Positions 15,055 to 32,621 of a DNA stretch of 64,000 nucleotides are shown piece by piece. Each line of letters starts with the position of its first letter. The first letter of the stretch is position 1. The position numbers and the translations under genes were made by a program. Source of the stretch: an uncultured bacterium. GTDB lineage: Bacteria; Pseudomonadota; Alphaproteobacteria; Rs-D84. The stretch spans positions 3,801 to 67,800 of the forward strand of contig CATNBF010000003.1 in the NCBI GenBank assembly GCA_950096895.1, given 5' to 3'. The notes under the pieces were generated by a model. It searched no databases and was not told the DNA's origin. It saw only the letters and a list, made by a program, of their open reading frames with translations.

Positions 15055-15118
15055 GTTTAATAATCCCTACTCTCTGGCTATATCTTATCAGATTTTTTAT
15101 CCAGCCGCAAGGCCACAC

Positions 15119-17716
15119 TTACATATTACCTTTACCCGCATTCGGATCTTGACAATAGCCCCAGCGAACACTGGCCCCTGTTTCAGAATAAAACAACTGA
15201 AATAATTCACCAACTGGTTCCGTAGTGTTGGGTGTGTCACCCGCCGCCGGGGTTGCCGCTTTGGACGTATTGCTGGTGGTATCTTCTTGGTATGGCAAAT
15301 TAACCCACCGTCCGCCCAAACGTTCACATTCCGCGGCCAGTTCTTTGGACATTTCTGCCTGGATTCCGGCCATCACCACATTCACATCTTGCAACACAAC
15401 AGTCGGCAAGACGTCAACCCCACTCTGGGTATATGTGGGACGGATGCATACCTGTAACGCATACCGCACCAGTTTTTGATACACACTGCCGATATATTGA
15501 TTGGTCGTACCACAGTCCGGCCGCATTGTCCCCGCAGTAACACATTCACCACCGTTGTCGTTATCTTTATTATATTCAGCCCAAGGTTGCACCCCACCCG
15601 GACAATTACATTTACCAGGACATGGAACACACATATTACCCTTTTTCGGGGTATTGTCCGGCTTAAAAAATGCGCCATCGTCAAGCTTCTTACTATACCC
15701 CCCTTCATCATACGCCAAATAATAGCCCGATTTACATTGGTAATAAATACGATCCGCATCGCAGATATAGGGGTTGGGATCAACCGTCTCGGTCGCGTTT
15801 GGATCTTGGTATGATTCTGCTGATAAAATAGAATTACATCCCTTGATGACCGACATCTGCTGCTCGCCCGGGGAATAGGTACGACATGCATATGGGTAAT
15901 GATGCAATGTATCATTACTGGGGACTGCGCACAAATCTTTGGCAAATTCTTCCAGTGTTTCTTTACAATTTTTGGCAATCTTTTGATCGGTAATTCCCGA
16001 CATTGTTGTCGCCAGCAATGCCATACCACCCAATCCACCACCGTACAGATTGCTGCACGCGTCCAATTTTACCTTGCACATTTCTTCGGACAATTCCATT
16101 CGTGCCCCAAGTAAGGCCTGTTTTCGGACATTACTAAAATCTTTCAACTGATTGCTTTGTTCATCATAACACTGATTCACAACACTTAAACACTCATCCT
16201 TGACCTGGCGAACACGTTGATGCTGACCTTGATAAATTTCAGTGATGGCCTGGCGCAAAAACTCGTCCCAAACCTGGTCTGCAACATCACGACATGAATC
16301 TAAACTTTTTTCTGCAAAAGATTTTTTACGCTGTAACTCTGTCACCAAGGATAAATTATCTTCGTTGGTCAACACATCACCGGCCAAAGACAATTGCGTT
16401 TCCAGTTGATAAAAATCAGTACTGTATATCGGTTCACCGGTTTCACGATTCAAATATAAGCCCGTAATATCTAAACAGTGGACATAATTCTCGCCACATG
16501 CCATGTTGCCCGTAATATCTGTGCGCACATTGGCAATACAATCGTTAATAGATGACGAATTGTGGGTGTTATAATTTTCCAAACGGGCCTGGTTCATTTC
16601 CCGTTCGGTGGCACGGACGTTCCCAGACGCTTCGATTGTTTGTTTATCCAATGCATTTGCCAATGTTGTACAGTCATTTTCAATATACATCCCATATGCC
16701 GAAACCACCATGTTAAATGTTGACGTTGGCTGACAAATTTCTTTAACCAAATCGGCACATTGTGCATGAACCGCATTATACAACGGTTCGCCGGTTAAAT
16801 TGGCCAATTCTGCCCCGGCGGCCAAATCTGTTGTCGACCAAATCGCATTTATATCGCCTGCAATGTCCAACTGGCCTTGGGTGTCCAAAGATTTCTTTTT
16901 GGTTTTATTCAAAACATCACTGATCCCGTCCAAGGCCGCCGCATTGGCCGATTGGTCCTTGGCCCCGGCCAGTGTTTCTTCACCTGCCGTTCCGCTTAAC
17001 ATGGCCTTTACCTCGGCTGCACTCTTGGTGATAACATCTATATTCAAATCCTTGAAATCTTGCAATTGTTCGCCGGTCTGTTCCAGAACGCGTTGATGGT
17101 TAATAACATCTTCCAGTCGGGCCGAACAGACGCATCGCCGATAATTTTCATTCTGTTTGGCACAGAATTGATCCATACACGTAAAATACGCGTCACGACA
17201 TGCGTTATATCCCGCCCCAAATGTATTGGTGCTGCTGGCGGTATCTGATGTGGCGGCGCGGGCAATCCGCCCACCCCCCGCGGTGCTGGTGGTGGCACGG
17301 GCACTGCGTGCAATGCCCGATTGCACCATTACCCCAGAACGCGCCGCACTGCGTCCCTGGGATACCGTACTAATCGCACTGCGTGCCGATGACCGCGCAC
17401 TAACCGGGGATGTCACTATGTTTGTGCTGGCCGACCGATTGGGACGCGAAACAACCGCACTGGGGGTTAATGCGCTGCGTCCCGATGAAACCACCCCGCC
17501 CCCAGATCGCGATGATACCACCGGTGTGACCACGGCCGACCGCGCACCCGACACCGTCGTGGTCGACCGTGCCGCCGTGTCTGATGTATTTGATGAACGC
17601 GTCGCTGTATTAGTGGTTGCCCCAGACCGCGTTGCGGTATTGCCACTGCGTATCGCGGCGTGCGCAACACCGATACACATCAAACCGCATACAAAAAAAG
17701 GCAGTATTCTTCTCAT
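15119..17716 (-). CDS. secreted cysteine-rich protein, paralog family member P3 (865 aa)
   Basis: Signal peptide. About 150-aa linker of tandem x-x-R-S units (ATRSGATTNTATRSSNTSDTAARS...). Family motif YNACRDAYFTCMDQFCAKQNENYRRCVCS. The C-terminal region carries GCC2/GCC3-like Cys repeats (CKSGYYLAYDEGGY...CVPCPGKCNCPGG). Ends ...GKGNM. Confidence 0.75.
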   Translation of the reverse strand: MRRILPFFVCGLMCIGVAHAAIRSGNTATRSGATTNTATRSSNTSDTAARSTTTVSGARSAVVTPVVSSRSGGGVVSSGRSALTPSAVVSRPNRSASTNIVTSPVSARSSARSAISTVSQGRSAARSGVMVQSGIARSARATTSTAGGGRIARAATSDTASSTNTFGAGYNACRDAYFTCMDQFCAKQNENYRRCVCSARLEDVINHQRVLEQTGEQLQDFKDLNIDVITKSAAEVKAMLSGTAGEETLAGAKDQSANAAALDGISDVLNKTKKKSLDTQGQLDIAGDINAIWSTTDLAAGAELANLTGEPLYNAVHAQCADLVKEICQPTSTFNMVVSAYGMYIENDCTTLANALDKQTIEASGNVRATEREMNQARLENYNTHNSSSINDCIANVRTDITGNMACGENYVHCLDITGLYLNRETGEPIYSTDFYQLETQLSLAGDVLTNEDNLSLVTELQRKKSFAEKSLDSCRDVADQVWDEFLRQAITEIYQGQHQRVRQVKDECLSVVNQCYDEQSNQLKDFSNVRKQALLGARMELSEEMCKVKLDACSNLYGGGLGGMALLATTMSGITDQKIAKNCKETLEEFAKDLCAVPSNDTLHHYPYACRTYSPGEQQMSVIKGCNSILSAESYQDPNATETVDPNPYICDADRIYYQCKSGYYLAYDEGGYSKKLDDGAFFKPDNTPKKGNMCVPCPGKCNCPGGVQPWAEYNKDNDNGGECVTAGTMRPDCGTTNQYIGSVYQKLVRYALQVCIRPTYTQSGVDVLPTVVLQDVNVVMAGIQAEMSKELAAECERLGGRWVNLPYQEDTTSNTSKAATPAAGDTPNTTEPVGELFQLFYSETGASVRWGYCQDPNAGKGNM

Positions 17717-17812
17717 TCCACTTTATTATTATACAGTGTAACAAAAAAATAATCCCCAGGGCAAGGCCTTTGTTATTAAAATTATCCCTTGGGTATCGCC
17801 CAATGATGGGAT

Positions 17813-17850
17813 AAAAAAAATCCCGCAATTTGCGGGAAATTTTTTTATTT
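17813..17850. terminator. bidirectional rho-independent terminator after rplQ (A-tract, TCCCGC-aatt-GCGGGA, T-tract)
   Basis: AAAAAAAATCCCGCAATTTGCGGGAAATTTTTTTATTT overlapping the rplQ stop. Marks the end of the alpha operon. Confidence 0.65.
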
Positions 17851-18396
17851 GCCAGTGGCGCGGCGTCTTACCGCAACTTCTTTTTTGGCACCGGTCGCTT
17901 TGGCCGCCTTGGTCGCTTCTTTGGCAACTTTGGTCGACGGGGCGCGTGGCGCTTTTTCTGCCGGGGTGGTTGCCGGGGCTTGATCCGCCGCCGCATCCGT
18001 TGCCGCCGGTTTTACAACCTTTTTCGCACTTTCGTCACGATCAACCAATTCAATGATCGCCATCGGTGCCGCATCCCCATACCGGAACCCAGCCTTTAAT
18101 ACGCGGGTATAACCACCCGGACGCTTGACATAACGGGGCCCCAAAACAGTAAACAGTTTTTTCACCGTTGCATCCGATCCATTCCCCAGTTCCGATGCCG
18201 TCAAGCGACGATTGGCCACAGTGTCAACCTTGGCCCGTGTAATCAGTTTTTCGACCACACCGCGCAGGTCTTTGGCCTTGGGCAATGTTGTCTTGATCTG
18301 TTCTTTTTCAATTAAATTTTTCGCCAAGCCGATAAATAACGCCTTGCGTGCATTGGTATCGCGATTAAATGTGCGACCTGCTTTTGCGTGTCTCAT
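17845..18396 (-). CDS. rplQ: 50S ribosomal protein L17 with C-terminal Ala/Lys/Pro-rich basic extension
   Basis: [56 protein letters not shown] is the L17 core. The last ~60 aa are a histone-H1-like tail. Confidence 0.88.
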
Positions 18397-18798
18397 GATT
18401 ACTCCTTTTTATTACTTTCTGCCCCGGGATCCGGGGATTTTCACAAGATGGCACCCTAAAAAAACTTACTTTTTTCAGAAATGCACCGCGTTGATTTTAT
18501 ACAATTTTCCCCAAAAAGCAAGGAAAAAGTCCATTCCCCACATAGGCGGGGAAAATAAGAAATTAAATTATGTGCGACAAATGATGCCACAGAATTTAAT
18601 AAAAATTGTCAGAATGTGCCGAATGGCGATTTTAACGGTGGCGTGGTGTAATTACCCACATCAAGCCAACAAAACACCATATGACACGTTCTGGTAAGAA
18701 ATTAAATTTTATGAGATGATTGGAAACGGTTGCCGGTTCGTAGTGTAGTCGACCTACATGAGAACCAGCAACCGTGACAAGCGTCCATAAAATTTAAT

Positions 18799-19827
18799 TT
18801 ATTTGTAGGGGTCTTCGTACTTCTTGGCCAATTCCGCGATATTTTCTGGCGGCCAACCCGGTACTTCCATCCCCAGGCCCAGCCCCATGGCTTCTAATTG
18901 AACTTTGATTTCGTTCAAAGACTTGCGGCCAAAGTTCGGCGTTTTTAACATATCGGCTTCAGTCTTTTGAACCAATTCGCCCAACCAGTTAATTTTGTCA
19001 TTTTTCAGACAGTTATTGGCGCGAACCGACAATTCCAGTTCATCAACATGCTTTAACAATTTCGGGTCGAACGGCAACGCATCTTTGGCTTTTTCTTCTT
19101 CGGCCGGGGCATTGATTTGCGCCGGATCTTCAAAGTTAATAAAGACAACCAATTGGTCGGTCAAGATACGCGCGGCATATGCAATGGCATCTTCGGGCGA
19201 TACAGAACCATTTGTTTTTACCGTCAATTCTAATTTATCGTAATCTGTTGATTGTCCAACGCGGGTCGCGGTAACATCGCTGGCCACGTTCAAAATCGGC
19301 GAAAAGATTGAATCCACCGGAATAACACCCAACGGCAACCCATCGGCATGCGCCGACGCCGGAACATAGCCACGCCCCGTAGATAATGTGATTTCCATAT
19401 CCAGGTTCGCCCCTTTGTCCAGGGTGCAAATTTCTACGTCTTTGTTCATTACTTCGACACCGCCAGACGTTTCGATCATGCCTGCGGTAACGACCGCCGG
19501 TCCTTTGACCTTGATCGTGGCTTTATGTTGACCTTCGGTTAGGGCCTTGAAATAAACACCTTTTAGGTTCAAGATGATATCCGTCACATCTTCGCGAATG
19601 CCGGCCAGACTTGAAAATTCATGCTGAACCCCATCGATCTTGATAGAAATTGGGGCACATCCCTGTAACGAAGACAACAGAACACGACGCAACGCGGTTC
19701 CCAATGTCAACCCAAAACCCTTTTCCAGCGGATCTGCAATTAATGTGGCAATGTTCGGATTATGTTCATCAACCTTGATTGTCAATTTCTTTGGCTTAAT
19801 CAAAGTCATCCAGTTTTTTTCAATCAT
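18799..19827 (-). CDS. rpoA: DNA-directed RNA polymerase alpha subunit
   Basis: [15 protein letters not shown]...[48 protein letters not shown] closely matches alphaproteobacterial RpoA. Full alpha-CTD present. Confidence 0.93.
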
Positions 19828-19887
19828 AAAAGTTTCCTTTTTTGGCTTAGTTTATTATTTTCACCATTTAGGCGTGGGAATTTTATA

Positions 19888-20427
19888 TCAGAAATCCCCC
19901 AAAGTCAATTGTTTTATCGTGTCGCAGGGATTTTCAAAGACAATCTCCCGTCCCCCCGCCGCACACCAATCGGCAATATTACCCGCCCGATCATCAATCA
20001 ATAAATCATTTGATGTGGGATGAATCAAATCTTCTTTGGCACCACGGACAACAATAACATGCGTATCGTCAAAATAATGCAGCATATGACGCGCAATCCA
20101 TGCGCGTTTTTCCCGGTCGATAAAATCAACATACGCATCGGACCCAACAAAATTTTTGGCCCCCGGCACCTTGGTCAAGACGTACAGTTCGCCGCGCTGG
20201 GCCGCCGTACGCAATAAGTCATCAATACCCGACATAACCGGCAAATCACGCCAGAAATGTGGCCGCTGCTCAATCATGCGCCACCGGGCCCGCTTGGCCG
20301 CGCGACCAGCATCGTCCATTTGTTTGGTCTGAAGATTTAAGTCAACCGACACCGGTGGCAAATCAACTGTTCCCTGATAAAAATCTGCCAAAACACCATC
20401 CATATCAAAAAATATTCTCATTGACAT
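19888..20427 (-). CDS. HAD-superfamily 5'(3')-deoxyribonucleotidase-like (NT5C-type) hydrolase
   Basis: N-terminal IFFDMDGVLADF is HAD motif I (DxDGVL). AAGGAG RBS. Located between rpsK and rpoA, where no gene is normally found. Confidence 0.55.
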   Translation of the reverse strand: MSMRIFFDMDGVLADFYQGTVDLPPVSVDLNLQTKQMDDAGRAAKRARWRMIEQRPHFWRDLPVMSGIDDLLRTAAQRGELYVLTKVPGAKNFVGSDAYVDFIDREKRAWIARHMLHYFDDTHVIVVRGAKEDLIHPTSNDLLIDDRAGNIADWCAAGGREIVFENPCDTIKQLTLGDF

Positions 20428-20701
20428 AGCCTGTCCACTCCTTTTTTTGCATTAAATAAACATTGAAAATATGGTATAAATGAAACGAAAAAGTAAGATA
20501 AATTCAATTGATGTTATATCACGTACGAACTTGTTGTGCAATCCAAATGTTTACCCTTTTGCGAACAATCCGATAAATAATAATAAATCCATATTGAACC
20601 TCAGATCGTGCCACGGGCCATACCATCGCACGGGCGATCACGTTTTCATAAAACGAGGCGAAAAAATACGTATATTATGGATCTGGGGGCCCGGATCATA
20701 A

Positions 20702-20731
20702 CAAAAAAATCCCGCCGGGGCGGGATTTTTC
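20702..20731 (-). terminator. rho-independent terminator downstream of P4 (AAAAAAATCCCGCC-gg-GGCGGGATTTTT)
   Basis: GC stem flanked by an A-tract and a T-tract, immediately 3' of the P4 stop (20732-20734). Confidence 0.6.
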
Positions 20732-23611
20732 CTACATCTTGATAACCTGGGTTTGGGTCTGGGGTTCTGAAAATTCTTTACAGACCACCCCTTGATACTC
20801 GGTCGATACGACCTTTTTCTTCTTTCTGAACAAACCACCGCGCTTTTTCGTCGTTGTCGTCTTCATCAAAGTTTCCAGGTTTTTACATTCCTTGGTCACG
20901 GTCGTGATGGTACATTCATTCTTGGCCGCATCGAACAATGCCGATTTGTTCACAGATCCGATCTGGGCCCCAGATTCTTCATCGGTCAAGATCCATTCAC
21001 CCTTGCCCGATGCCTGACTCTTGGCCATGTTTGACATACCAACCCCAGTAATCTTAATTTCTGTTGCACTCTTTGTCTCGCCTGCGCCATCCAAAGTAGA
21101 CAACAATTGATCCACCGCGCTAACTGTTGTCGTGTTTCCGTCTTTGTCTGTTACTTCTTCGGTATCATCTGCATTCATCGCCATCGCCGCACACATTACC
21201 GCTTTGGTTTCGCTGCTTTGATTTGCGACCGCTGCAGCATATAATTCATTGAATTTTTTGTCATAGTTTTGACGTGCCTGCTCTAAGATAGATTCAGCAA
21301 TCACATATTCATATGGCAACAGCAAGCTGGGGTATCTGCCTGTGCTGCGTTGCTTGTCCCCCAGGCTGATATTACGGACATCGCGCCCATTGACACACTC
21401 GTCAACATTGCGATCGTTTAATATCATGCTAAGTTTGCCATCTAACTCTCTTTGCATGGCATTGATCATACCTTCAATTCGATCCTTGACTCCCGCTTCA
21501 ACCGTCGCTGGGACTGTGTACGAGAACTTATAATTATATTGATAATCGTCCAATGCATCCCCCACATCTTCGGTGGTTCCATTGGTCGCGGTTGCATCAC
21601 CCGTTTTCTTATTAGTCTTTTTGATCTTGACAGCATTAAAATCAACCAATCCATCAATGATGTAATCGTTACCATCATGACGACCATCCAGGCTGGATGC
21701 GCCAACTGCGGTGGTTAATTCACAATAATCGATATCACCACAGATATCAATCATCCGATTATCGGCAAATTTTTCACATTGTGTTGCCATCTTGTTATCG
21801 ATTTCGTTAAATATCCCACGCAAGAACGAATTAATCTCTGCATCATCATAGCTGGCTTGTATACGTCCACTTGTACCATCTGCCTTTTGGCATCCCACCA
21901 GCTTGGCAACCGGACACATTTGTTTCAAATCATCCAGATCCATATTGAAACATGCCGAATAATCCGGACCACAACGATTTGGTGATTGCAAACAATTTCT
22001 CATATCATTGGCACATTCATCAACCCGCAACGACGCCAATTTATCGTCAACAAAATTCATAATTCCTGGGATTGCTGTTTCGCACTGATCAATCTGAACC
22101 TTGCAGGCACCACGGGCAATATTCGGGTCGGTCGCACATGCCGCCATTGTGGCGGCATCATCGGAACCAACCGAAGATTTACAGTGATCGTTAATACATT
22201 TCGTAATCATGGACAGACAGCTGTTACGCAAATTCGATTCTGCGATCAATTCCGCCGATTTAATCTGGGGTGCAATCATGCGCAAGAACGCATCAAACAC
22301 TTGGTCTTTGACATCTGTACATGAATTCAAGATCGTTTTACAGACAACAGATTTTGCCGCCAAATCACTGTACGTGTATGAAGAAATACCAATATTGGCC
22401 GCCATACCAGAAATCTGGTATTGGTTTAAGCTCTCGCCTTTTAGGCTCATCATCGCACTCATCCCGATACATCCTGAAAAATCAGTACCGCATTCGGCTT
22501 TATCTTGCATACATTCTTTGAACTTTAATGTACATTCACCCAAATCATATGCATTCGCAGAACGATACGATTCCAATGCCGCCGCACGCAGTTCTGTTTC
22601 CGCCGTTTGCAGTTTTTGAGCCGACGCATCACGCATCGTCTTTAACGAATTTTCATACGCCGCACAGTCACCTTTGATCTTTTGACCATACATTAACTGC
22701 AGCATATTGATTTCCGCCTTACACTCTGGCATCTGGGCCACGCATAAATCTGCCGCCGCCTTGTGCAGGGCATCGCCTGTTAAATTCGCAATATCATTCT
22801 TGGAATCATTCAAATCAAATATATCGAAATCATCATCGTCTTCGAACAGTGATTTCGTCCACGCCGATGTATGAGCCTTGTAGCCTTTGGATTTCTGGGG
22901 GGTTGTTATGTCTTTAATTTCAATGCTGTTTTCAACCTCTTTGGCGGCCTGGTTTGCCATTTTAATCGCCGCATCTGCATCAGAACCCATATTAATCCGT
23001 TCCACCCCCAGGGTTACCATCTGATACGATTGACGATCCAATTTTTCAATTTCTGCCAAAATCGCACTATAATCTTCGTTCTTATCACTGCACATACAGC
23101 GGCCACCACTGGCATTATCAATCATACAGAAAGAATCCATACAGCCTTCGTATTTTTGGCGACAATCCGTGCTGACCACTACATTTTCGGTCGCTGTGTT
23201 AATCTTGACCCCACTTTGAATAACCTTTTGTGTGGATGCGGCACGGGCCGACACGGTCGGTGCCTTGGCCGATCCAGCATTGGTATTTGCGGTATTTGTG
23301 CGGCTTGCACTGCGTGCCGAAACCGTTGACGTTGTTGCCCCAGAATTATTTCCCGCCGGTGCATTTGACCGCACCGCCGCCCGTGCCGAAACCGCAGACG
23401 TCCCGCCGCCCGTTGCCGGTGCAGATACGCGCGTCCGTGACGCCGCACGTGCCGCCACAGGGGCCGCCCCAGTATCCGATGACGACACATTATTTGCCGC
23501 CCCAGATGCCCCCGCACCACGCCGTTGAACCGGTGCAGCTGCGTCTGCAACCCCAGTAAATCCCATTAAAAATGCCGAAAATAATACAAGAGCTTTCATC
23601 TTTTTCCCCAT
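20732..23611 (-). CDS. secreted cysteine-rich protein, paralog family member P4 (959 aa)
   Basis: Signal peptide. About 120-aa A/S/R/T linker (SARAA/SARSA repeats). Motif CRQKYEGCMDSFCMIDNASGGRCMCSD. Long colinearity with P1. C-terminal GGLFRKKKK...CKEF...VIKM. Alternative start at ATG 23599 (MKALVLF) has a GGGGAAAAAG SD. Confidence 0.75.
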   Translation of the reverse strand: MGKKMKALVLFSAFLMGFTGVADAAAPVQRRGAGASGAANNVSSSDTGAAPVAARAASRTRVSAPATGGGTSAVSARAAVRSNAPAGNNSGATTSTVSARSASRTNTANTNAGSAKAPTVSARAASTQKVIQSGVKINTATENVVVSTDCRQKYEGCMDSFCMIDNASGGRCMCSDKNEDYSAILAEIEKLDRQSYQMVTLGVERINMGSDADAAIKMANQAAKEVENSIEIKDITTPQKSKGYKAHTSAWTKSLFEDDDDFDIFDLNDSKNDIANLTGDALHKAAADLCVAQMPECKAEINMLQLMYGQKIKGDCAAYENSLKTMRDASAQKLQTAETELRAAALESYRSANAYDLGECTLKFKECMQDKAECGTDFSGCIGMSAMMSLKGESLNQYQISGMAANIGISSYTYSDLAAKSVVCKTILNSCTDVKDQVFDAFLRMIAPQIKSAELIAESNLRNSCLSMITKCINDHCKSSVGSDDAATMAACATDPNIARGACKVQIDQCETAIPGIMNFVDDKLASLRVDECANDMRNCLQSPNRCGPDYSACFNMDLDDLKQMCPVAKLVGCQKADGTSGRIQASYDDAEINSFLRGIFNEIDNKMATQCEKFADNRMIDICGDIDYCELTTAVGASSLDGRHDGNDYIIDGLVDFNAVKIKKTNKKTGDATATNGTTEDVGDALDDYQYNYKFSYTVPATVEAGVKDRIEGMINAMQRELDGKLSMILNDRNVDECVNGRDVRNISLGDKQRSTGRYPSLLLPYEYVIAESILEQARQNYDKKFNELYAAAVANQSSETKAVMCAAMAMNADDTEEVTDKDGNTTTVSAVDQLLSTLDGAGETKSATEIKITGVGMSNMAKSQASGKGEWILTDEESGAQIGSVNKSALFDAAKNECTITTVTKECKNLETLMKTTTTKKRGGLFRKKKKVVSTEYQGVVCKEFSEPQTQTQVIKM

Positions 23612-23622
23612 TTATTTTTGAC

Positions 23623-23633
23623 ATTTTATCACA
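23623..23633 (-). promoter_or_regulatory. putative extended -10 promoter element (TGTGATAAAAT) for P4
   Basis: Minus-strand TGTGATAAAAT lies 12 nt upstream of the P4 ATG. The homologous cassettes at 27074-27084 and 3085-3093 read TGTGATATAAT and TGATATAGT. Confidence 0.35.
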
Positions 23634-23679
23634 TTTCAATAATTAAAGAAAATACTTTTTTACAATTTCATAATACATG

Positions 23680-23707
23680 TTGACAAATTTTATTTTTGAA
23701 TTACAAT
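23680..23707 (+). promoter_or_regulatory. putative promoter TTGACAAATTT-16-TACAAT (possibly leaderless) for gene 23715
   Basis: TTGACA 23680-23685 and TACAAT 23702-23707. ATG at 23715 sits at about the predicted TSS. About 80 bp of flanking sequence is homologous to 27048-27159. Confidence 0.4.
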
Positions 23708-23714
23708 TTAAGGT

Positions 23715-24527
23715 ATGAAACAGTCACCAAGACATCATTTCTATCGAACCGCACCGGCATATGTTATGACGAACGAAGACCTGCGTTGGGTCAACACAAT
23801 TGTCAACCCCCATGCCCAGCGGGTTTTAACCGTCGCGGCCAGCGGGGATCATCCCTTGTTCTATCAACTATTCGGGGCCACGCACGTTGACACATTTGAC
23901 ATTTCTTATTGCGCAAAATTAATCACAGATATCAAATGCGCCGCCATTCGTTCATTGGATTTATCACAATATTCACAATTGATATTCAATTTATTCAATG
24001 CCCCATGCGTCACCGAATTACCCCATATGACCGATACAATTATGCCGCAGCTGGGTTCACTGGCCCAAAAATTTATAAAAAAATACGATCGTTCTTATAT
24101 TTTTTCAAACGGTATTCAACCGGCATTATATTATAAAAACTTTCTGCCGACCCCGAATGAATACCAGAAATTGCAACAGATGAATATTAATTCTTTTCAT
24201 TTTATCAATACAGATATCCAGCTTTTGCATACACAATGCCCAAACAAATACGACATCATCAATCTATCCAATATCTTTGAATACATTCATGACACCAATA
24301 TCATCAAAGACACACTGTGTCATCTGGGACACCTGTTACACATGGGGGGCAAAATTATTGTCCACCAAACAGAAATATTAACAAACACCCAACAAAATAA
24401 TTATTATCACATCAGCCAGCAATTAGCCCCATGGGCCAGAATGGGCATCTATGTCAAAGATAAAACCAAAGACATATGCCAGCCAACCGCCATCATCTTA
24501 CAAAAAATTAACGAGATTATCCGATGA
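23715..24527 (+). CDS. putative class I SAM-dependent methyltransferase (270 aa)
   Basis: Weak Rossmann-fold MTase motifs: VLTVAASGDHP (motif I-like), VDTFDIS (acidic end of beta-2), YDIINLSNIFEYI (motif II), LLHMGGKIIV (motif III, LKPGG-like). Divergent from P4. Confidence 0.4.
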   Translation: MKQSPRHHFYRTAPAYVMTNEDLRWVNTIVNPHAQRVLTVAASGDHPLFYQLFGATHVDTFDISYCAKLITDIKCAAIRSLDLSQYSQLIFNLFNAPCVTELPHMTDTIMPQLGSLAQKFIKKYDRSYIFSNGIQPALYYKNFLPTPNEYQKLQQMNINSFHFINTDIQLLHTQCPNKYDIINLSNIFEYIHDTNIIKDTLCHLGHLLHMGGKIIVHQTEILTNTQQNNYYHISQQLAPWARMGIYVKDKTKDICQPTAIILQKINEIIR

Positions 24528-25090
24528 CACGCACCCCCTATTATCATATGTTATATATTGTCGACGAATACATGGGCTTTGCACCACATGGCCATATGGA
24601 CATGCAAAAGTTATATAGACTTGTTGGCAACTATTATTATCAAAACGCTTTAATCTTTAACTATGATTCAAATCGCTGGAATCACAATAAAGAATATATG
24701 GATTATGAACTTAATGATCTGTTGGATGATGTTACCCCCTATGTCATTAAAATGAAACTCGTCACTGAATCTGAACCATGGGCCCAGGGCAAAGATTTGG
24801 TTGGATTTGCCATCATGCCTATTGATGCCCAAAATTACCCCGGATACAGCAAAGGTTTAATAGGCCCTGTTGCCGATCCAGACGGAACCGCGATTGTTGG
24901 CAATGTCATCTGGCGCGATCGCAAGACACGGCGTCTGATCCCGATGTGCAACAAATGGACATGTGGTGACAGATATCAATTTCCCATCGAAACCATGAAC
25001 CTAGGAATCGCAGAATTCGCCGATACATTTAACCAGGTTGACCTGTTTCGTCAATGCGTGGCCCGAAATAATGGTATTAAACTTTATTAA
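24524..25090 (+). CDS. hypothetical protein (188 aa), translationally coupled to the upstream gene
   Basis: ATGA overlap with the stop of 23715-24527. No recognisable domain. Confidence 0.4.
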   Translation: MTRTPYYHMLYIVDEYMGFAPHGHMDMQKLYRLVGNYYYQNALIFNYDSNRWNHNKEYMDYELNDLLDDVTPYVIKMKLVTESEPWAQGKDLVGFAIMPIDAQNYPGYSKGLIGPVADPDGTAIVGNVIWRDRKTRRLIPMCNKWTCGDRYQFPIETMNLGIAEFADTFNQVDLFRQCVARNNGIKLY

Positions 25091-25121
25091 AAAAATCCCC
25101 ACATATGTGGGGATTTTTTTG
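25089..25121. terminator. bidirectional rho-independent terminator (AAAAAAATCCCCACA-ta-TGTGGGGATTTTTTT)
   Basis: Perfect 8-bp stem between the convergent genes 24524-25090 (+) and 25128-27047 (-). Confidence 0.65.
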
Positions 25122-25127
25122 GTGTCT

Positions 25128-27047
25128 TTATTGACAAATGCCATTTGACTTTGCCACCGGTTTGTTTTCGACACACTGGCTGCCGGATGCGACACAGGCC
25201 GCATCAACAATCGTTGTCGCCCCACTGGCATTCTTATAGCTGATTCTGGCGGACGCGCATTGATTCAAATCGGTCAATTTAGCGCACGCATTGTGCCATG
25301 AATCACAATCTGTGATTGCCACAATCGGGGCCGCCGTATCCGGCAGTTTTAGATTCCATTTCACATAGAAATCTTTCAAACTGTCGATCTTGTATGATTT
25401 ACCCATCGATACCTTGGCCAGACCATCACCCACATGGCAGCTGATGTTGTTGCGTTCAACAAAGGCCGTAATCGCAGTGGCCAATCCACCCGCACCGGCA
25501 CCAATCCCGGCACCCGTCAATGTCGATTCCAACATATTGGAATCATCACCATTTTCAAGATCGAATTCTTTCCAAACACCTTCCAGTTCCGACAGCTGAC
25601 GCCGCATTGTGGCCACATCGACACAATCATCACTGCCGTCTGCGGCATCACACATGGCCGCCCCGCCCCGAATTAATGCACGATTCAAGGAATGGAATCG
25701 ACATGTCGGATTACCCGCACCATCTGTTACACGGGTATCCGTGCTGGTCGATGTTGTGGTTCCATTTGCCACTGTAACTTCTATGGTATCTGTAACAGTA
25801 TATCCATTACCGCGATGACAGGCATCAACCGCTTCCTTGATATCAAAATATCTCTGATACAGATCTAAAATATCCTGGCACTGGCTGCTGGTGATATCAC
25901 CACCAACCAAGGAAATGCTGTCATTCAAATACTTATTCAAAATGGCCATCTTGCTACTTTTACGCAGCTGGTTTGTAAAGCTCTTTAATTGCTTATCATC
26001 ACTGCAATTAAATTCACGATCACCATGTCCGGCCCAGGCCCCAATACCGGCCCCAACAACCGCACCACCACCTACGCCAACAACCGCGGCACTACGTGTC
26101 TTGTTCATCAATGAAAATCCGAACAAATCTTTGTTACAAGAAAATGTGTCGCCGGCACTCTGCCATACTTCGGCTGGTTCATCATTGCCCAACGCGCCAA
26201 ACAACCATGTGTTCGAAATTTGTTTATCTTTGTTATAGGCCGCCACACGCACCAAACATGTTGCCGTTGTTGCATCCCAACGGGCATAATGCCCACGCGA
26301 CCCATCTACGGTATCATTGTCTGAATTAACCGCCACACCTTGGGGATTTTGCTTTTGCAAATCACCACCCATGGTATTATACGCCCCAACAACTTGGCCA
26401 TATTCGGTCGTTACGCTACCCGAATTGGAAACCGCGGCAAAAGACGTACCAAACGTATTTCTATCCAGTAACAAGCATGTATTTTCTGCCTGGTTCGGTG
26501 TTAAACCTGTCTTGCGCAAAACAAAGTTGTAATATTCCGGCTGAATCCGGCGGGAATTAAAGTCCGTCCAAACATCGGCCGACGACGCATAAACAGATGT
26601 ACAATTTTTACGCACATCGTTAACGCAACGATCCACCTGGATCGAACACAACCCCATTCCATTCATGATCGCGTTACGTAAATCTTCGTTAAACAAATCA
26701 TTCAAACCGCCTGGCAATGCACCACCATTAACACAGCCCAATAAATCATTCATACAATTTTCGATTGTATATTCAGAATCTGCCACACCACCATCGGCAC
26801 ACTTGGTATTGGGTTTTACCGCATTGTTTCCCGGATTGCTGGTTGAAATGTTGCCAATGCTCATCCCTGGCAAGGTCGGCATTGTCGGCATACGCGCAGA
26901 TGACGACGTCGGCATAACCCCAACGCGCCCCATGCGCCCAGTATTCGACGTTCCACGTGCCGGATCTGCCGCACATGCCGCCGTCACAATCGCAATTGCG
27001 CCCAGGCTGGATGCGGACGCGCCAAAGATTTTTAGCAGTTTATGCAT
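25128..27047 (-). CDS. secreted cysteine-rich protein with Gly-rich segments, distant paralog family member P5 (639 aa)
   Basis: Signal peptide MHKLLKIFGASASSLGAIAIVTAACA. S/T/P/G/M low-complexity linker. ENCMNDLLGC block (family motif variant). Gly-rich hydrophobic segments VVGVGGGAVVGAGIGAWAG and TGAGIGAGAGGLATAITAF similar to P0 and P2. Confidence 0.65.
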   Translation of the reverse strand: MHKLLKIFGASASSLGAIAIVTAACAADPARGTSNTGRMGRVGVMPTSSSARMPTMPTLPGMSIGNISTSNPGNNAVKPNTKCADGGVADSEYTIENCMNDLLGCVNGGALPGGLNDLFNEDLRNAIMNGMGLCSIQVDRCVNDVRKNCTSVYASSADVWTDFNSRRIQPEYYNFVLRKTGLTPNQAENTCLLLDRNTFGTSFAAVSNSGSVTTEYGQVVGAYNTMGGDLQKQNPQGVAVNSDNDTVDGSRGHYARWDATTATCLVRVAAYNKDKQISNTWLFGALGNDEPAEVWQSAGDTFSCNKDLFGFSLMNKTRSAAVVGVGGGAVVGAGIGAWAGHGDREFNCSDDKQLKSFTNQLRKSSKMAILNKYLNDSISLVGGDITSSQCQDILDLYQRYFDIKEAVDACHRGNGYTVTDTIEVTVANGTTTSTSTDTRVTDGAGNPTCRFHSLNRALIRGGAAMCDAADGSDDCVDVATMRRQLSELEGVWKEFDLENGDDSNMLESTLTGAGIGAGAGGLATAITAFVERNNISCHVGDGLAKVSMGKSYKIDSLKDFYVKWNLKLPDTAAPIVAITDCDSWHNACAKLTDLNQCASARISYKNASGATTIVDAACVASGSQCVENKPVAKSNGICQ

Positions 27048-27073
27048 AAAATACTCCCTTTACTATCCCTAGT

Positions 27074-27084
27074 ATTATATCACA
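27074..27084 (-). promoter_or_regulatory. putative extended -10 promoter (TGTGATATAAT) for P5
   Basis: Minus-strand TGtGATATAAT, 20 nt 5'UTR with GGGAG SD before the ATG at 27047. Confidence 0.4.
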
Positions 27085-27124
27085 AATTTTTATACAATAA
27101 AAATACTTTTTATGTTAATTTATA

Positions 27125-27153
27125 TTGACAAATTTACTTTTTTGTTTATATTT
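27125..27153 (+). promoter_or_regulatory. putative promoter TTGACAAATTT-17-ATATTT for gene 27160 (leaderless or near-leaderless)
   Basis: TTGACA at 27125-27130 lies inside the ORF-track start 27112, so that start is rejected. Cassette is homologous to 3145 and 23680. Confidence 0.4.
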
Positions 27154-27159
27154 ATTATT

Positions 27160-28173
27160 ATGATTAAAAGCCTGATCAAATTTTATACATCGCATCGATA
27201 TGCTGTTATTTGGACGGCATGCTATGTGACGATCATGTGGGTAATATTACGTGTTTTATTTGAATTCAACATGTTTTCATGGACGCACTGGCATATTTTA
27301 ATGCACGCGCATTTGCGTGGTTTCCCAGGATTTGTGTTTGGGATTTTAATGCTGGCGGCGTTACCGATGTATGTGGCGACAACCATGCTGATTGTGCGTA
27401 CGGGAAAACCGCTGATCCAGATTCCAAAGCCCAAGATACCGGCATTGATTAAAAAGCTGATCCCGGCGCAACAAAAGTCCGCCCCCACCGAGACCGACAC
27501 CCCAGCAGCCCCAACCGATCAATCGCCCCAGCCAGAACCGTCCCCAGAATTACCTGTGGGATTACCCAACGAACTGCATGCGGCCTTTATCCGGGCACGC
27601 AATAATCCGCCGTTTGAATTTCAACGTCCTGATGCGGCGCATACCCCGTCGGATACCAACGTCACCGCCCCCACAGACAACCAAATGGATCCAGACGGAT
27701 TACCATTGCCAATGGATTTTGGGTTCGAAGATTCCACCCCCACCCCATCAGATAGCTTTGTCCCGGCGGCATTGCCAACATTTACCAGCATTGATTTTGA
27801 TTCACCGGCCCCGGCATCGTCGGCCCCAATTGTGGTCGATACCCCCGCCCCTGATTCAGAATTGACCGATGTTATCAACCATATCCGATCCAGCAATCGT
27901 GACTTTACACTGGAAAATAATGTCATTTTGTGCGCCGACATGGCCATCGGGGCCCACACCAACCCAGAATTCTGGATCGCAGACGACGATGATTGGTTTG
28001 CCACTGGGCTGCAAAAACCGTCCCCTGTGGCCGCCGCCATACGCGCCGCCACCGCGCACGGGGTAACGCCGGTTATTTACCTGGGGGCCAAGAATATCAT
28101 GGATATCGATGGCCGCATCGCCGCATGGACCGCCAATGGGGTACGTGTTATTACCGACCTGGACCAGATATAA
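27160..28173 (+). CDS. hypothetical membrane protein with Pro/Thr/Asp-rich middle and conserved C-terminal domain (338 aa)
   Basis: Start uncertain: ATG 27160, 27235 or 27271. The true start is downstream of the promoter -35. TM helix FPGFVFGILMLAALPMYVATTML. Pro-rich IPKPKIPALIKKLIPAQQKSAPTETDTPAAPTDQSPQPEPSPELP. Globular C-terminal ~120 aa. Confidence 0.5.
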   Translation: MIKSLIKFYTSHRYAVIWTACYVTIMWVILRVLFEFNMFSWTHWHILMHAHLRGFPGFVFGILMLAALPMYVATTMLIVRTGKPLIQIPKPKIPALIKKLIPAQQKSAPTETDTPAAPTDQSPQPEPSPELPVGLPNELHAAFIRARNNPPFEFQRPDAAHTPSDTNVTAPTDNQMDPDGLPLPMDFGFEDSTPTPSDSFVPAALPTFTSIDFDSPAPASSAPIVVDTPAPDSELTDVINHIRSSNRDFTLENNVILCADMAIGAHTNPEFWIADDDDWFATGLQKPSPVAAAIRAATAHGVTPVIYLGAKNIMDIDGRIAAWTANGVRVITDLDQI

Positions 28174-28194
28174 CGGTATAAACCCGCATGCACG

Positions 28195-28953
28195 CTATTT
28201 ATTTTTCCTGATAAAATCTGCCACACAGCACCGATCCCAATTAATGCCTTGTTTAACCATACGGGCCGGTACGCCTGCAATAACAATATTGGGGGCATCA
28301 AACTGATGCGTGACCACACTGCGCGCGGCAACCACCGAATTATCCGGAATTACCGCCCCCTTTGAAATCAAGACATCTGTGGCGACCCAAACGTGATTGC
28401 CAATACGCACATCACAGTTGTGGTTCAAAACCTGGCCTGATTGACTATCAACAATTGTATGGTAATCCCCATTACGAATAGTAATGTTATAGGCAAACAT
28501 GCAATCTTCGCCGATAACAACATCCCCACCGCCACCGTGCGCCAATTCAATATGAACCACACCGGTCGAAGAAAAATTTTTATGAATAATCACATTTACC
28601 GGACAATCACACCCAAATTCCCCACGAAATATATTTAACAAGGCCCCACATGCATGTACTGGGTAAATCGTTATATTCGTATTACTTGAAACATTTATGC
28701 GCAAGCCTAAGCCAATCGGTTCATGTAAATAAACGTTATTATTTGTGCCCTTGAATAAAATTGTACATCCTGGAATTTTGGCCACTTCGTACCGGGTGCC
28801 ATCGGGCGCAATGCGAAATATATGATTCCCAGATGATACCGCACCCCCAGACGACGTAACCTGGTCACCGCCTCTAAACCTATGCCGGATACAATGACGC
28901 ATCGCCCGCGATGGTATAAAACAACAAACAATTCTTAATATAAATCCCGACAT
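28195..28953 (-). CDS. hexapeptide-repeat (left-handed beta-helix) acetyltransferase
   Basis: Tandem hexapeptide repeats (IGNHVWVATDVLISKGAVIPDNSVVAARSVV). Start moved to ATG 28953 (MSGFIL...) because the track start 28998 is embedded in a terminator-like hairpin. Confidence 0.6.
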   Translation of the reverse strand: MSGFILRIVCCFIPSRAMRHCIRHRFRGGDQVTSSGGAVSSGNHIFRIAPDGTRYEVAKIPGCTILFKGTNNNVYLHEPIGLGLRINVSSNTNITIYPVHACGALLNIFRGEFGCDCPVNVIIHKNFSSTGVVHIELAHGGGGDVVIGEDCMFAYNITIRNGDYHTIVDSQSGQVLNHNCDVRIGNHVWVATDVLISKGAVIPDNSVVAARSVVTHQFDAPNIVIAGVPARMVKQGINWDRCCVADFIRKNK

Positions 28954-28974
28954 TCCTGGTACCTCATATCCATA

Positions 28975-29013
28975 AAACAAAACCACCAAGACAATCATGG
29001 TGGTTGGGGTTTG
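28975..29013 (-). terminator. hairpin AACCACCA-n9-TGGTGGTT with a T-rich run on the minus strand (terminator-like)
   Basis: Perfect 8-bp stem. On the minus strand it is followed by TTTTGTTTTAT. Confidence 0.35.
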
Positions 29014-29396
29014 AGAACAATTACAGGAATTGCACGGTTTATTATTTTATGTATTAACCGTACCCCAACCAAATGGTTGGGATTTATCATCATCTCTGAC
29101 GCCTGTACGGGGTTCTCACGCCCCAATGCGACAACACATCGCATCAAATGAAATTTTATATAAAAAAATTAAAAGAGCAATAAAAAACGTGCCCTTTGTG
29201 GGCAATAATTTTGCTTTATCCCCATAAAAAAGTCCTGTGCCATGCCACGACTAACCATTGTCTGGCCCATGTAACACGGTTGCCGGTTGATACGCATTTG
29301 TATTAAAAAATTGACGCATGGGTGGGCCCGCGCGCTCCACGCCTATATCCCCGGCCGCTAATGCTGCCCCCAACCGCCCATCTGAATTCTGCACAC

Positions 29397-29505
29397 TAAA
29401 AAAATCCACCCAATTGGGTGGATAATAAAAAAAAAGAACATTGCAGTTATAAGTGTTTTACGTCACCTATCTGACCCCTGCTCTGATGAAATCTGAACAC
29501 CCATA
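29397..29505. repeat. about 100-bp direct repeat, copy A, containing the 20-bp perfect palindrome ATCCACCCAATTGGGTGGAT (29404-29423)
   Basis: Near-identical copy at 29853-29950: AAAAATCCACCCAATTGGGTGGATAATAA...GAACATTGCAGTTATAAGTGTTTTACGTCACCTATCTGA. Confidence 0.8.
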
Positions 29506-29536
29506 AAAAATCCCGCCCATCGGCGAGATTTTTTAT
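29505..29536. terminator. rho-independent terminator (AAAAAATCCCGCC-catc-GGCGAGATTTTTTAT)
   Basis: A-tract, 7/8-bp stem, T-tract. Lies 3' of the small minus ORF 29533-29733. Confidence 0.5.
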
Positions 29537-29733
29537 CGACCTTCATTGTGTTTCTGCTGTTTTAAGTGAGCTCTCAATTCTTTGATTCTCGCCCACATGA
29601 ACATAATCCGTTCATCACGTTCACCCAACGCATTATTGTAATTATCTATAATTTTGTGACCTGCCTTAACGATCCCAAACCCACATATAAACGCCCAGAA
29701 TAAGTACCCAGGCAAAATCCCAATTGCTGCCAT
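29533..29733 (-). CDS. hypothetical small membrane protein (66 aa) flanked by the direct repeats
   Basis: One TM helix (IGILPGYLFWAFICGFGIV) followed by a charged tail. Own terminator. Sits between the two 100-bp repeat copies. Confidence 0.3.
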   Translation of the reverse strand: MAAIGILPGYLFWAFICGFGIVKAGHKIIDNYNNALGERDERIMFMWARIKELRAHLKQQKHNEGR

Positions 29734-29852
29734 GTAAATCGAAATCCGCAGCTGGGCTTATCATATCCTTCTGGAGCATTTTTTTGGGGAATGTTAGCAG
29801 TGCCCCCATTTGAACTCCAAAATATAACACATGCGGGTATAACGTCGGCAGA

Positions 29853-29950
29853 ATAAAAATCCACCCAATTGGGTGGATAATAATAAGAACATTGCAGTTA
29901 TAAGTGTTTTACGTCACCTATCTGAACCCTGGCACTCTGAACACAAAAAA
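29853..29950. repeat. about 100-bp direct repeat, copy B (palindrome at 29859-29878)
   Basis: See copy A. About 456 bp apart in the same orientation. Confidence 0.8.
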
Positions 29951-29973
29951 TGCCCCGTTGGGGCATTTTTTCT
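29946..29973. terminator. bidirectional terminator (AAAAAATGCCCC-gtt-GGGGCATTTTTTC) immediately 3' of rpsK
   Basis: Perfect 7-bp stem flanked by an A-tract and a T-tract. rpsK stop at 29974. Confidence 0.6.
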
Positions 29974-30357
29974 TTACACGCGACGTACTTTCTTTGGGCG
30001 GCATCCATTGTGCGGAATACGTGTCGTATCCGTAATAGATTGCACGATCAACCCTGCGTTTGATAAACCACGAACCGCAGATTCCCGACCCTGGCCGATA
30101 CCACGCATCAGAACGTCTACTGTCTTCATACCCATTTCTGCGACTTTCTTGCCCACAGAATCTGCAACAACAGTTGCGGCGTACGGTGTCGATTTTTTTG
30201 CACCCTTAAAATTATTCGCCCCGGCGGTCGCCCATGTTAAAACCGCACCAGATTGATCTGTGATTGTAATACGTGTGTTATTGTTTGTCGCAACCACATG
30301 GGCAATCCCATGAGATACTTTTTTAACGACTTTCTTTTTTGCTTTTGTAACTGCCAT
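29974..30357 (-). CDS. rpsK: 30S ribosomal protein S11
   Basis: MAVTKAKKKVVKK...GIAHVVATNNNTRITITD...GLNSAGLIVQSITDTTRIPHNGCRP is the S11 signature. Confidence 0.93.
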   Translation of the reverse strand: MAVTKAKKKVVKKVSHGIAHVVATNNNTRITITDQSGAVLTWATAGANNFKGAKKSTPYAATVVADSVGKKVAEMGMKTVDVLMRGIGQGRESAVRGLSNAGLIVQSITDTTRIPHNGCRPKKVRRV

Positions 30358-30518: not shown

Positions 30519-30896
30519 TTACTTACCCTTGGTGGCGGAACCGGCGACAACCACGCGCTTGCCCTTGCGGGTACGTGCGTTTGTCTGGGTACGCTGACCG
30601 CGAACCGGCAAGCGGTTACGGTGACGAATCCCACGATACGCCTTTAGGTCTTGTAAACGCTTGATATTCATCGCAACTTCACGACGAACATCACCTTCGA
30701 CCTTAAAATTCTGTTCGATATAATTCGAAATTTTAACAACATCCTCGTCAGTTAGATCCTTGGTGCGCAGCCCATCTTTCAATTTCAAGGCCTTGCAAAT
30801 CTGGGCGGCCTTGGCCGGACCAATCCCATGGATATACTGTAACGCAATTTCGATGCGTTTTTCTGTCGGAATGTTCACACCTGCTATACGTGCCAT
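30519..30896 (-). CDS. rpsM: 30S ribosomal protein S13
   Basis: [33 protein letters not shown]... canonical S13. Confidence 0.93.
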
Positions 30897-31005
30897 CTTT
30901 TGTTTTCCTTTTTTATTAATCTTGCCGTCGCCTATTTTACACGGAATACGACAAAAGTCAATTTTTAGTTTACCACAACATTTTCATGTTGCCGGGAACG
31001 CAGAA

Positions 31006-32329: not shown

Positions 32330-32620
32330 TTATCTCTCTCTGGACTTGGCACAATCTAAGGCCCTGGCTAAAAACACATGTTTTTTTGCCATTTTCATCG
32401 GCTGTTGTGCTTTTTTATTCAAGGCATTGATATATGCCATCACCAACAGATTAAAGACCCGTGCTTGATATTCGGCCGGCAAATATCCCGGCAAGTCATC
32501 AATCATTGCCACGGCCAAGTCCGGTCGATCTGCCATCACAATGACATCTGCGGTACCAGAATGCATCACATGATTCATATGTGCCACCTGGGAACGAATA
32601 TAATCACGTGTCAAACTCAT
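32330..32620 (-). CDS. hypothetical small protein (96 aa), tandem paralog A, inserted between rplO and secY
   Basis: Shares LPGYLPAEYQARVFNLLVMAYINALNKKAQQ and HVFLARALDCAK with paralog B (LPDYIPEHYQMQMQRIWILTALNIIKQESKE and HRVLEANLNACR). No signal peptide. Confidence 0.45.
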   Translation of the reverse strand: MSLTRDYIRSQVAHMNHVMHSGTADVIVMADRPDLAVAMIDDLPGYLPAEYQARVFNLLVMAYINALNKKAQQPMKMAKKHVFLARALDCAKSRER

Positions 32621-32621
32621 C

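Follow-up and report, generated by a model that had tools for sequence, protein, structure and literature searches.

The alpha operon, in which rpsM, rpsK, rpoA and rplQ follow one another in most bacteria, is split by about 10 kb in the 64,000-nucleotide stretch analyzed here (contig CATNBF010000003.1 of assembly GCA_950096895.1; the whole stretch is called the window below). The source organism belongs to the Candidatus Enterousia group (order Rs-D84) of gut Alphaproteobacteria, and the closest loci carry the title Candidatus Enterousia. We propose, with a probability of about 0.75, that the split reflects a species-specific swap of adjacent native segments, together with a few patchily distributed genes, at a junction that was already transcriptionally uncoupled throughout the clade. 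Because the closest relatives do not have this arrangement, it is most likely a recent rearrangement confined to this species. An earlier reading of the same DNA, made from its letters alone (the sequence-only reading), had described the intervening block as a clear insertion of accessory DNA. This interpretation is supported only in part, as four of the genes normally lie beside rplQ, the composition is native, and no signals of mobility are present.

Native genes between rpsK and rpoA

According to the list of open reading frames (ORFs) and the Pfam assignments, rpsK and rpoA are 10,146 bp apart (19828-29973). The sequence-only reading had placed the end of rpsK at 29974 and the start of rpoA at 19827, which agrees with the Pfam matches to S11 and RpoA, and the Pfam and NCBIfam scans likewise supported its list of the genes in between. 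From rpoA toward rpsK, the block holds NT5C, Cys959, DUF3419, p188, Cys639, TMPro353, Hexa267 and the doubtful ORF p66 (Table 1). Relatives were collected by a scan with one genome per species, which yielded 80 loci with RpoA 62-97% identical. We mapped the window proteins onto these loci, taking best matches as orthologs, and counted gene orders in 49 species, namely those whose locus shows 9 kb or more of sequence downstream of rpoA.

The usual order in relatives is rplO-secY-rpsM-rpsK, a variable gap, rpoA-rplQ, and then DUF3419(-), Cys959(+), TMPro353(-) and Cys639(+). Downstream of rplQ, we found a Cys959-like gene in 38, TMPro353 in 37, Cys639 in 33, and DUF3419 in 16 of the 49 species. 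In the window, these four clade-conserved genes, which encode two secreted cysteine-rich proteins (Cys959 and Cys639), a methyltransferase-like protein (DUF3419), and a transmembrane, proline-rich protein (TMPro353), make up ~6.7 of the 10.1 kb, that is, about two thirds of the block. Among the relatives, the cluster is found on the upstream side of rpoA only in L026/L035 and L066/L072/L073, with L028 and L035 showing this in part, and the orientations relative to rpoA are alike in the window and L026. The genes that follow rplQ in the window, Cys865 and p236, have their orthologs beyond the cluster in L059, L063 and L043. Therefore, the window state can be described as a swap of two adjacent native segments.

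The sequence-only reading had named an ancient arrangement of core genes as the alternative that a synteny comparison might reveal. Most of the block genes are indeed core in relatives, but the arrangement itself is missing from the nearest ones (L003, L004, L008, L006 and L034). On a neighbor-joining tree of rpoA nucleotide sequences, the window, the L026/L035 pair, and the L066/L072/L073 group each branch among species that show the usual order. By parsimony, the cluster would thus have been relocated at least three times.

Could the whole 10 kb nevertheless have entered between rpsK and rpoA as an accessory island by horizontal transfer? Such an origin would fit the absence of the arrangement from the closest relatives, the lack of any homolog of Hexa267 and p66 in the 80 related loci, the patchy occurrence of NT5C and p188, the resemblance of NT5C to phage-type deoxyribonucleotidases, and the presence of a pair of direct repeats at one edge. 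However, the genes that are absent from related genomes are limited to Hexa267 and p66, whereas two thirds of the block is made up of genes that the clade conserves and that are usually located next to rplQ. Moreover, the composition is native. The block genes have a guanine-cytosine (GC) content of 0.40-0.52 and a GC content at third codon positions of 0.40-0.56, both within the range of the other 42 genes of the window, and their codon usage and GC skew resemble those of the rest of the window. The comparison of skew and codon usage by which the sequence-only reading hoped to expose a foreign origin thus turned out against it.

Signs of mobility were equally lacking. Pfam, NCBIfam and PHROG searches revealed no integrase or transposase in the block or among the genes that occupy the gap in relatives, no tRNA gene lies near the block (the sole one of the window is at 55255), and the block DNA matched none of 72,556 plasmids and 50,697 phages. 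PADLOC reported no defense system, while the PHROG matches were to generic enzyme families only; a prophage, a plasmid, and a defense island were rejected on these grounds. Since both repeat copies are located on the rpsK side of the block and flank only p66, they do not represent the attachment sites of an island. An insertion of the entire block is thus quite improbable, and for the four conserved genes it is already largely refuted.

In contrast, there is about an even chance that the block is of mixed origin, with the native cluster relocated and small horizontally acquired cassettes (Hexa267, NT5C, p188 and the p66/repeat unit) added at the same permissive site. The genes in question are patchy or absent in relatives, the junction of other species holds many unrelated single genes (GT2 glycosyltransferase, alpha/beta hydrolase, outer membrane protein (OMP) barrel), and the only NT5C homologs among the related loci, in L023 and L055, lie at the same spot just upstream of rpoA with an identity of only 40-44%. 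On the other side, the composition of the cassettes is indistinguishable from that of the genome, and the databases used carry no donor taxonomy. This scenario is compatible with the swap of native segments and extends it rather than competes with it.

A chimeric contig that joins rpsK to unrelated DNA across the repeats deserves next to no credence. The sequence is a metagenome-assembled genome (MAG), the repeats adjoin rpsK, and one other assembly breaks within Cys959, all of which could be expected of an artefact of assembly or binning. However, exact-protein look-ups led to two further MAGs of the window species, GCA_949032065.1 (contigs 35 and 9) and GCA_948511215.1, whose contigs match positions 32344-22914, 22918-8799 and 23310-18189 of the window at 99.7-99.97% identity, including the junction of rpsK and the repeats. 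One of them (L083) runs at 99.67% identity from secY-rpsM-rpsK through the same 975-bp repeat region with both copies and Hexa267-TMPro353-Cys639-p188-DUF3419 into the start of Cys959, and the others (L001 and L002) cover Cys959-NT5C-rpoA-rplQ at 99.7-99.97%. Splits of the same type are found in dozens of other species as well. We therefore rejected a misassembly, including the error at the rpsK-repeat junction that the sequence-only reading had raised.

Variability and probable uncoupling of the rpsK-rpoA junction

An alpha operon read as a single transcript would have rpsK adjacent to rpoA and no signal between them. In the window, a predicted terminator (29946-29973) follows rpsK, and a predicted promoter (19908-19880) precedes rpoA. 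To survey these elements, we aligned the 130 nt before rpoA and the 110 nt after rpsK from all loci. The rpoA promoter, TTGACTTT-17-TATAAAAT, is present in 73 of the 76 loci examined; it is missing in L076, L079 and L054, as well as in the distant outgroups L078 and L081, which lie outside the 76. Of 55 related loci, 45 have an intrinsic terminator behind rpsK; the four outgroups have none. In these outgroups with short gaps of 24-128 bp (L076, L078, L079 and L081), neither the rpsK terminator nor the rpoA promoter was found, while in the short-gap members of the clade (L004, L009 and L059) the terminator is succeeded by the promoter at once. No relic of the rpoA promoter or leader was found beside rpsK. 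Because the terminator and promoter occur in almost all members of the clade and are absent from the outgroups, transcriptional uncoupling is presumably an ancestral trait shared by the clade and was not gained with this block. The sequence-only reading was thus right in assigning rpsK a terminator of its own and rpoA-rplQ a separate promoter, but not in treating the former as newly acquired or the latter as a consequence of the split. It is this promoter of rpoA that would make the split tolerable across the whole group.

In relatives, the promoter is followed by a hairpin of variable sequence, the near-invariant 21-nt box GGYGAAAATRATAAACTAAGC, and the ribosome-binding site. The box has its equivalents ahead of rpoA in L003-L082. 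As the hairpins are out of register in the MAFFT alignment, we folded them sequence by sequence. The 57 distinct sequences gave a median of -11.8 kcal/mol and a mean z of -2.0; the structure is conserved while its sequence varies. The window species lacks this hairpin owing to a deletion of ~24 nt relative to L003. In the outgroups L076 and L079, the leader box is present and the promoter absent. The last codons and the stop codon of NT5C are situated inside the rpoA promoter, with the stop in its spacer, and therefore the block ends exactly at the -35 element. Since no terminator separates NT5C from rpoA, read-through from NT5C probably adds to rpoA transcription.

The junction that bears these signals is also the one that varies. 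The rpsK-rpoA gap ranges from ~110 bp to more than 10 kb in relatives, with a median of 1527 bp; it exceeds 300 bp in 43 of 51 species and 1 kb in 30. The other median gaps are 31 bp for rplO-secY, 152 bp for secY-rpsM and 61 bp for rpsM-rpsK (none above 300 bp), and 215 bp for rpoA-rplQ. In nine further loci, rpsK was not within the ~10 kb visible upstream of rpoA, and four loci have the rpsK operon beyond rplQ in inverted orientation; for 14 more, the visible stretch upstream of rpoA was too short to place rpsK. The gap holds at least 20 types of content in the 51 species, among them a small secreted Cys protein (33 loci), several unrelated Cys-rich proteins with signal peptides, p188-family genes, GT2 glycosyltransferase, alpha/beta hydrolase and OMP barrels. 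Several types are common to sub-clades (c0-c5-c3 in L050, L058, L062, L065 and L077; c17-c0 in L040, L042 and L044; c8 in L049, L053, L057 and L060), which points to inheritance and not to assembly noise. A separate case is L054 (rpoA 2709-3734, rplQ 8451-8999), where 4.7 kb lie between rpoA and rplQ and the usual rpoA promoter is missing; it is the only one of 78 loci with an rpoA-rplQ gap above 1 kb.

These observations suggest the following course of events. In the ancestor of the clade, the alpha operon would have been cut into rpsM-rpsK, ending in an intrinsic terminator, and rpoA-rplQ, with its own promoter and leader. The few dozen bases between terminator and promoter would from then on act like an ordinary operon boundary, at which lineages could insert, exchange, invert or translocate DNA. 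In the window species, the native cluster that normally follows rplQ (DUF3419 divergent with Cys959, and TMPro353 divergent with Cys639) would have come to lie across the rpoA-rplQ module, so that the segment order changed from A-B-C-D to A-C-B-D, with the two sub-modules permuted too. We infer that the region was most likely duplicated in tandem and then lost one copy of each part asymmetrically, since rpoA and rplQ are essential and on this route the cell would never have been without rpoA. As expected under the SNAP or tandem-duplication-random-loss model, the segment is native and adjacent and has kept its orientation. A single step of duplication and loss would suffice for L026, whereas the window would need two, as its divergent pairs are permuted. 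NT5C, p188, Hexa267 and the p66/repeat region may have travelled with the cluster or been added later, and rpoA would be transcribed from the conserved promoter.

Several points weigh against this scenario. We searched the non-coding stretches of the block by tblastn with all window and gap proteins for pseudogene remnants of a duplicate copy and found none beyond chance; after long divergence, such an absence is not decisive. The orthology of the cluster is based on best matches at 31-57% identity within multi-paralog families, and both the count of at least three relocations and the polarity, with uncoupling first, stem from parsimony on a one-gene neighbor-joining tree. The permuted sub-modules require two successive swaps or another path. 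Hexa267, p66 and the 95-bp repeats, which have no counterpart in any relative, could be horizontally acquired. The promoters and terminators are predicted from sequence and conservation. Finally, the junction may be either an ordinary inter-operon boundary or a special hotspot.

The latter possibility, that the site in front of rpoA is a landing pad, actively targeted or under selection, and more than a neutral boundary, seems unlikely to us, as does either form it might take, namely the recruitment of fast-evolving genes for secreted proteins beside a strong constitutive module or rearrangement via repeated hairpin elements. It would account for the 20 or more contents in 51 species, mostly Cys-rich proteins with signal peptides, and for the recurrent use of the breakpoint in insertions, inversions and translocations. 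In some species, copies of a 105-nt hairpin motif (described below) are also found exactly at rearrangement-prone positions after rpsK and after rplQ. However, no recombinase and no common sequence at the borders of the inserts was found, and secreted Cys-rich proteins are abundant all over this part of the genome. The hairpin copies within one genome have only their ~12-nt termini in common, which is too short for homologous recombination, and they are thus unlikely substrates for it.

Features of the block and of the alpha operon

Table 1. Positions of genes and signals of the split alpha operon and the intervening block in the window.
Feature	Position	Strand	Evidence or remark
Promoter-like site upstream of rpsM, TTGACT-16-TAAAAT	30934-30961	-	consensus scan, 10/12 match; predicted start of the rpsM-rpsK unit
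rpsM (S13)	30519-30896	-	PF00416
rpsK (S11)	29974-30357	-	PF00411, E 5e-38
Intrinsic terminator directly after rpsK	29946-29973	-	12-bp stem and T-run, dG -16.2 kcal/mol
Direct repeat, copy A (~95 bp)	29855-29945	-	ends in hairpin ATCCACCCAATTGGGTGGAT and Ts
p66, doubtful 66-aa ORF between the repeat copies	29533-29733	-	own terminator-like hairpin after it; not called as a gene on L083
Direct repeat, copy B	29400-29495	-	
Hexa267, hexapeptide-repeat (LbH) acyltransferase (likely)	28195-28998	-	without homolog in any related locus
TMPro353, transmembrane, Pro-rich, 353 aa	27112-28173	+	clade-conserved
Cys639, secreted, Cys-rich, 639 aa	25128-27047	-	clade-conserved, 31-57% identity; divergent pair with TMPro353
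Bidirectional terminator hairpin	25085-25124	both	common to convergent p188 and Cys639
p188, 188 aa	24524-25090	+	4-nt overlap with DUF3419; patchy family
DUF3419, methyltransferase-like	23715-24527	+	PF11899, 49.9 bits (cut-off 28.2)
Cys959, secreted, Cys-rich, 959 aa	20732-23611	-	signal peptide; clade-conserved, fast-evolving
Terminator-like hairpin after Cys959	20703-20730	-	
NT5C, HAD 5'-deoxyribonucleotidase-like	19888-20427	-	PF06941, 43.6 bits (cut-off 24.8)
Dedicated rpoA promoter, TTGACT-17-TAAAAT	19908-19880	-	clade-conserved; predicted
rpoA leader box GGTGAAAATAATAAACTAAGC	19845-19865	-	57 distinct sequences, 20 columns invariant; single occurrence in the window
rpoA	18799-19827	-	three RpoA domains (Pfam)
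105-nt conserved hairpin motif, from the rpoA stop codon	18696-18803	-	dG -44.3 kcal/mol, z -9.2
rplQ (L17)	17845-18396	-	Pfam
Terminator after rplQ	17821-17837		end of the rpoA-rplQ module

At the rpoA end of the block, the PF06941 match of NT5C covers residues 5-168, and phrog_2643 was matched at E 1.4e-20. The product is thus a member, by sequence, of the NT5C family in the HAD superfamily, with a predicted catalytic activity.

Cys959 belongs to a family of more than 400 members, all unnamed and all from MAGs of Alphaproteobacteria, with paralogs in the window at 15119-17716, 11437-13638 and 8900-11407. Apart from itself, its best match has 43% identity, against 97% for RpoA in the closest relative, which shows that Cys959 evolves fast. 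Cys959 had no match in Pfam, NCBIfam or among the PDB sequences. An AlphaFold model of moderate confidence (pLDDT 69.5) predicts a disordered N-terminal region of ~140 amino acids (aa), a helical core rich in Cys and a beta region at the C terminus, and a Foldseek comparison of this model with the PDB returned nothing below E 0.9. Judging from the signal peptides and from the lifestyle described for the clade (PMC12306168), a role in the cell envelope or in the interaction with a partner can be guessed at. The sequence-only reading had taken the 959-aa and 639-aa proteins for paralogs, for which neither BLASTP nor hhalign (probability 0.3%) gave support.

Altogether, the region 8900-27047 encodes six Cys-rich proteins with signal peptides, four of which are mutual paralogs (8900-11407, 11437-13638, 15119-17716 and 20732-23611). 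Several of the six carry long disordered N-terminal regions rich in Arg, Ser, Ala and Thr. The family is confined to MAGs of Alphaproteobacteria and diverges far faster than core genes.

The match of DUF3419 spans only positions 3-132 of the 385 in the profile. Its gene has a promoter-like site (23680-23707) that ends 7-8 nt ahead of the ATG at 23715, and TMPro353, whose true start is probably 27160, has such a site at 27125-27152. The divergent spacers of Cys959/DUF3419 (23623-23708) and Cys639/TMPro353 (27074-27153), which are 71-74% similar, thus both hold a near-consensus promoter with a -10 box that stops 7-8 nt short of the ATG, which points to leaderless mRNAs and to a regulatory design common to the two. 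As for p188, a paralog is present at 7704-8261 (+) that is 22-25% identical to the p188-family members of relatives; the family is small and patchy. Hexa267 matched PF00132 at 22.1 bits, under the cut-off of 27, and the NCBIfam models LacA, Maa, WcaF and Vat down to E 2e-13, all far under their cut-offs. It is likely to belong to the LbH acyltransferase superfamily and, having a homolog in none of the related loci, is truly accessory.

At the rpsK end, the pair of direct repeats reported by the sequence-only reading was confirmed. The two copies of ~95 bp are 94% identical, lie 451-455 bp apart and have an identical 33-mer in common, which did not occur in any of 100 shuffles. Each copy follows another terminator and itself ends in the perfect palindrome ATCCACCCAATTGGGTGGAT and a T-run. 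The repeat has only these two copies in the 64 kb, and none in 82 related loci or in a scan of JGI metagenomes; a mobile element or a widespread small RNA was rejected on that account. For p66, the Pfam and NCBIfam scans gave no family match.

The 105-nt hairpin that begins at the stop codon of rpoA proved to be a recurrent motif. With a covariance model, it was located behind rpoA in at least 45 loci, in some cases as a tandem, and in relatives also behind rpsM, rpsK or rplQ, and nowhere else in the 1.3 Mb of related loci sampled (examples are L005:11025-11132, L012:8998-9107, L023:7526-7634 and L020:11808-11915). Of its 33 pairs, 20 covary, while the base and apex are invariant; the termini read AAATTAAAT...ATTTAATTT and the apex YATGTA-N5-TACAC. 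Rfam returned nothing at the gathering score for the rpoA leader and this hairpin in the window, L008, L009 and L076, and at E<=1 the stretch 17700-20000 gave nothing except an irrelevant 15-bit match. The hairpin and the rpoA leader box are thus two uncatalogued conserved motifs of RNA or DNA. A tentative extension of our scenario is that rpoA-rplQ has become a self-contained, relocatable module, that the site upstream of its promoter serves as a recurrent landing or exchange site for secreted and surface genes, and that the hairpin and leader box are new cis-regulatory RNA motifs, which tune the output of the alpha operon after the loss of S4-type coupling. The parts of such a module may be the strong promoter, the leader box with its 5' hairpin, the operon-specific 105-nt intercistronic hairpin, and its own terminator.

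Two further observations concern the spacers of the ribosomal protein genes. The rpoA-rplQ spacer is 402 bp long in the window, against a clade median of 215 bp. In its part at 18397-18695, the hairpin motif occurs a second time, with an internal deletion (~18556-18600), and there are also a weak hairpin of the terminator type (18534-18553) and the promoter-like sequence TTGCTT-16-TAAAAT; because of these elements, rplQ may be transcribed in part independently. Between rplO and secY (32330-32924, minus strand), there are two small ORFs of 100 and 96 aa that are weakly alike. At the same spot, the same-species contig L083 (362-652) has a single ORF of 96 aa, with only 31% identity between flanks of 99.7% identity, as if the core (spc) operon carried a cassette that is hypervariable among strains.

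Comparison with known systems

Intercistronic hairpins that process or stabilize transcripts are known from the RNase III sites of phage T7 and from REP elements such as that of malE-malF. The 105-nt motif resembles them in being long, near-perfect, placed between cistrons right after stop codons, and sometimes tandem. In contrast to them, it is restricted to alpha-operon genes in the 1.3 Mb, has an invariant base and apex, and has no match in Rfam.

With genomic islands and integrative elements, the block has in common that it comprises several genes absent from this place in close relatives and that repeats lie near one of its ends. It differs from them by its native composition, the lack of an integrase, tRNA or attachment-site structure, and the conservation of most of its genes in the clade. 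As a warning for annotation, an apparent island within a core operon may consist of native genes from the adjoining region. The large, fast-evolving family of secreted Cys-rich proteins may mediate the partner-dependent lifestyle of these bacteria. Members of the Enterousia clade live in the gut, have reduced genomes (below ~1 Mb), and probably depend on a partner (PMC12306168).

The linkage of rpsM, rpsK, rpoA and rplQ is widespread in bacteria (PMC9514032, PMC8046335), and that of rpsK and rpoA is among the most conserved bacterial adjacencies. Compared with the canonical alpha operon of Escherichia coli, Bacillus subtilis and most bacteria (rpsM-rpsK-[rpsD]-rpoA-rplQ), the window agrees in its genes and in their order and orientation, with a promoter-like site ahead of rpsM and a terminator behind rplQ. 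Unlike in the canonical operon, rpsK is followed by a terminator and rpoA preceded by a dedicated promoter and leader, rpsD and adk are not part of the cluster, and the halves are separated by 10 kb here and by 0.1 kb to more than 10 kb in relatives, where they can also be unlinked. The clade thus amounts to a natural experiment in transcriptional uncoupling. Across at least 78 species, the rpsK-rpoA junction has broken up into many different states while all others in the cluster have remained tight, which supports the idea that co-transcription, beyond gene function alone, holds these genes together.

A close parallel is provided by the rearrangements that Brandis described for the whole secE-to-alpha cluster, with 163 events in 204 species over ~2-2.5 billion years, explained by a SNAP model of tandem duplication and random loss (PMC8046335). 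As in those events, native genes have entered a cluster that is otherwise highly conserved, nothing points to horizontal transfer from distant sources, the new order is not kept in all descendants, and duplication and loss is a plausible route, since essential genes are involved; remnants of a duplication, as that model might leave, were not found here. The events detailed by Brandis (rpoBC-str, str-S10 and rplL-rsmC) took place between operons or adjacent genes of the cluster (PMC8046335). In contrast, the changes reported here concern one junction inside the alpha operon, which has reached at least 20 states in one genus-level clade and is thus unusually labile when set against those cluster-wide counts.

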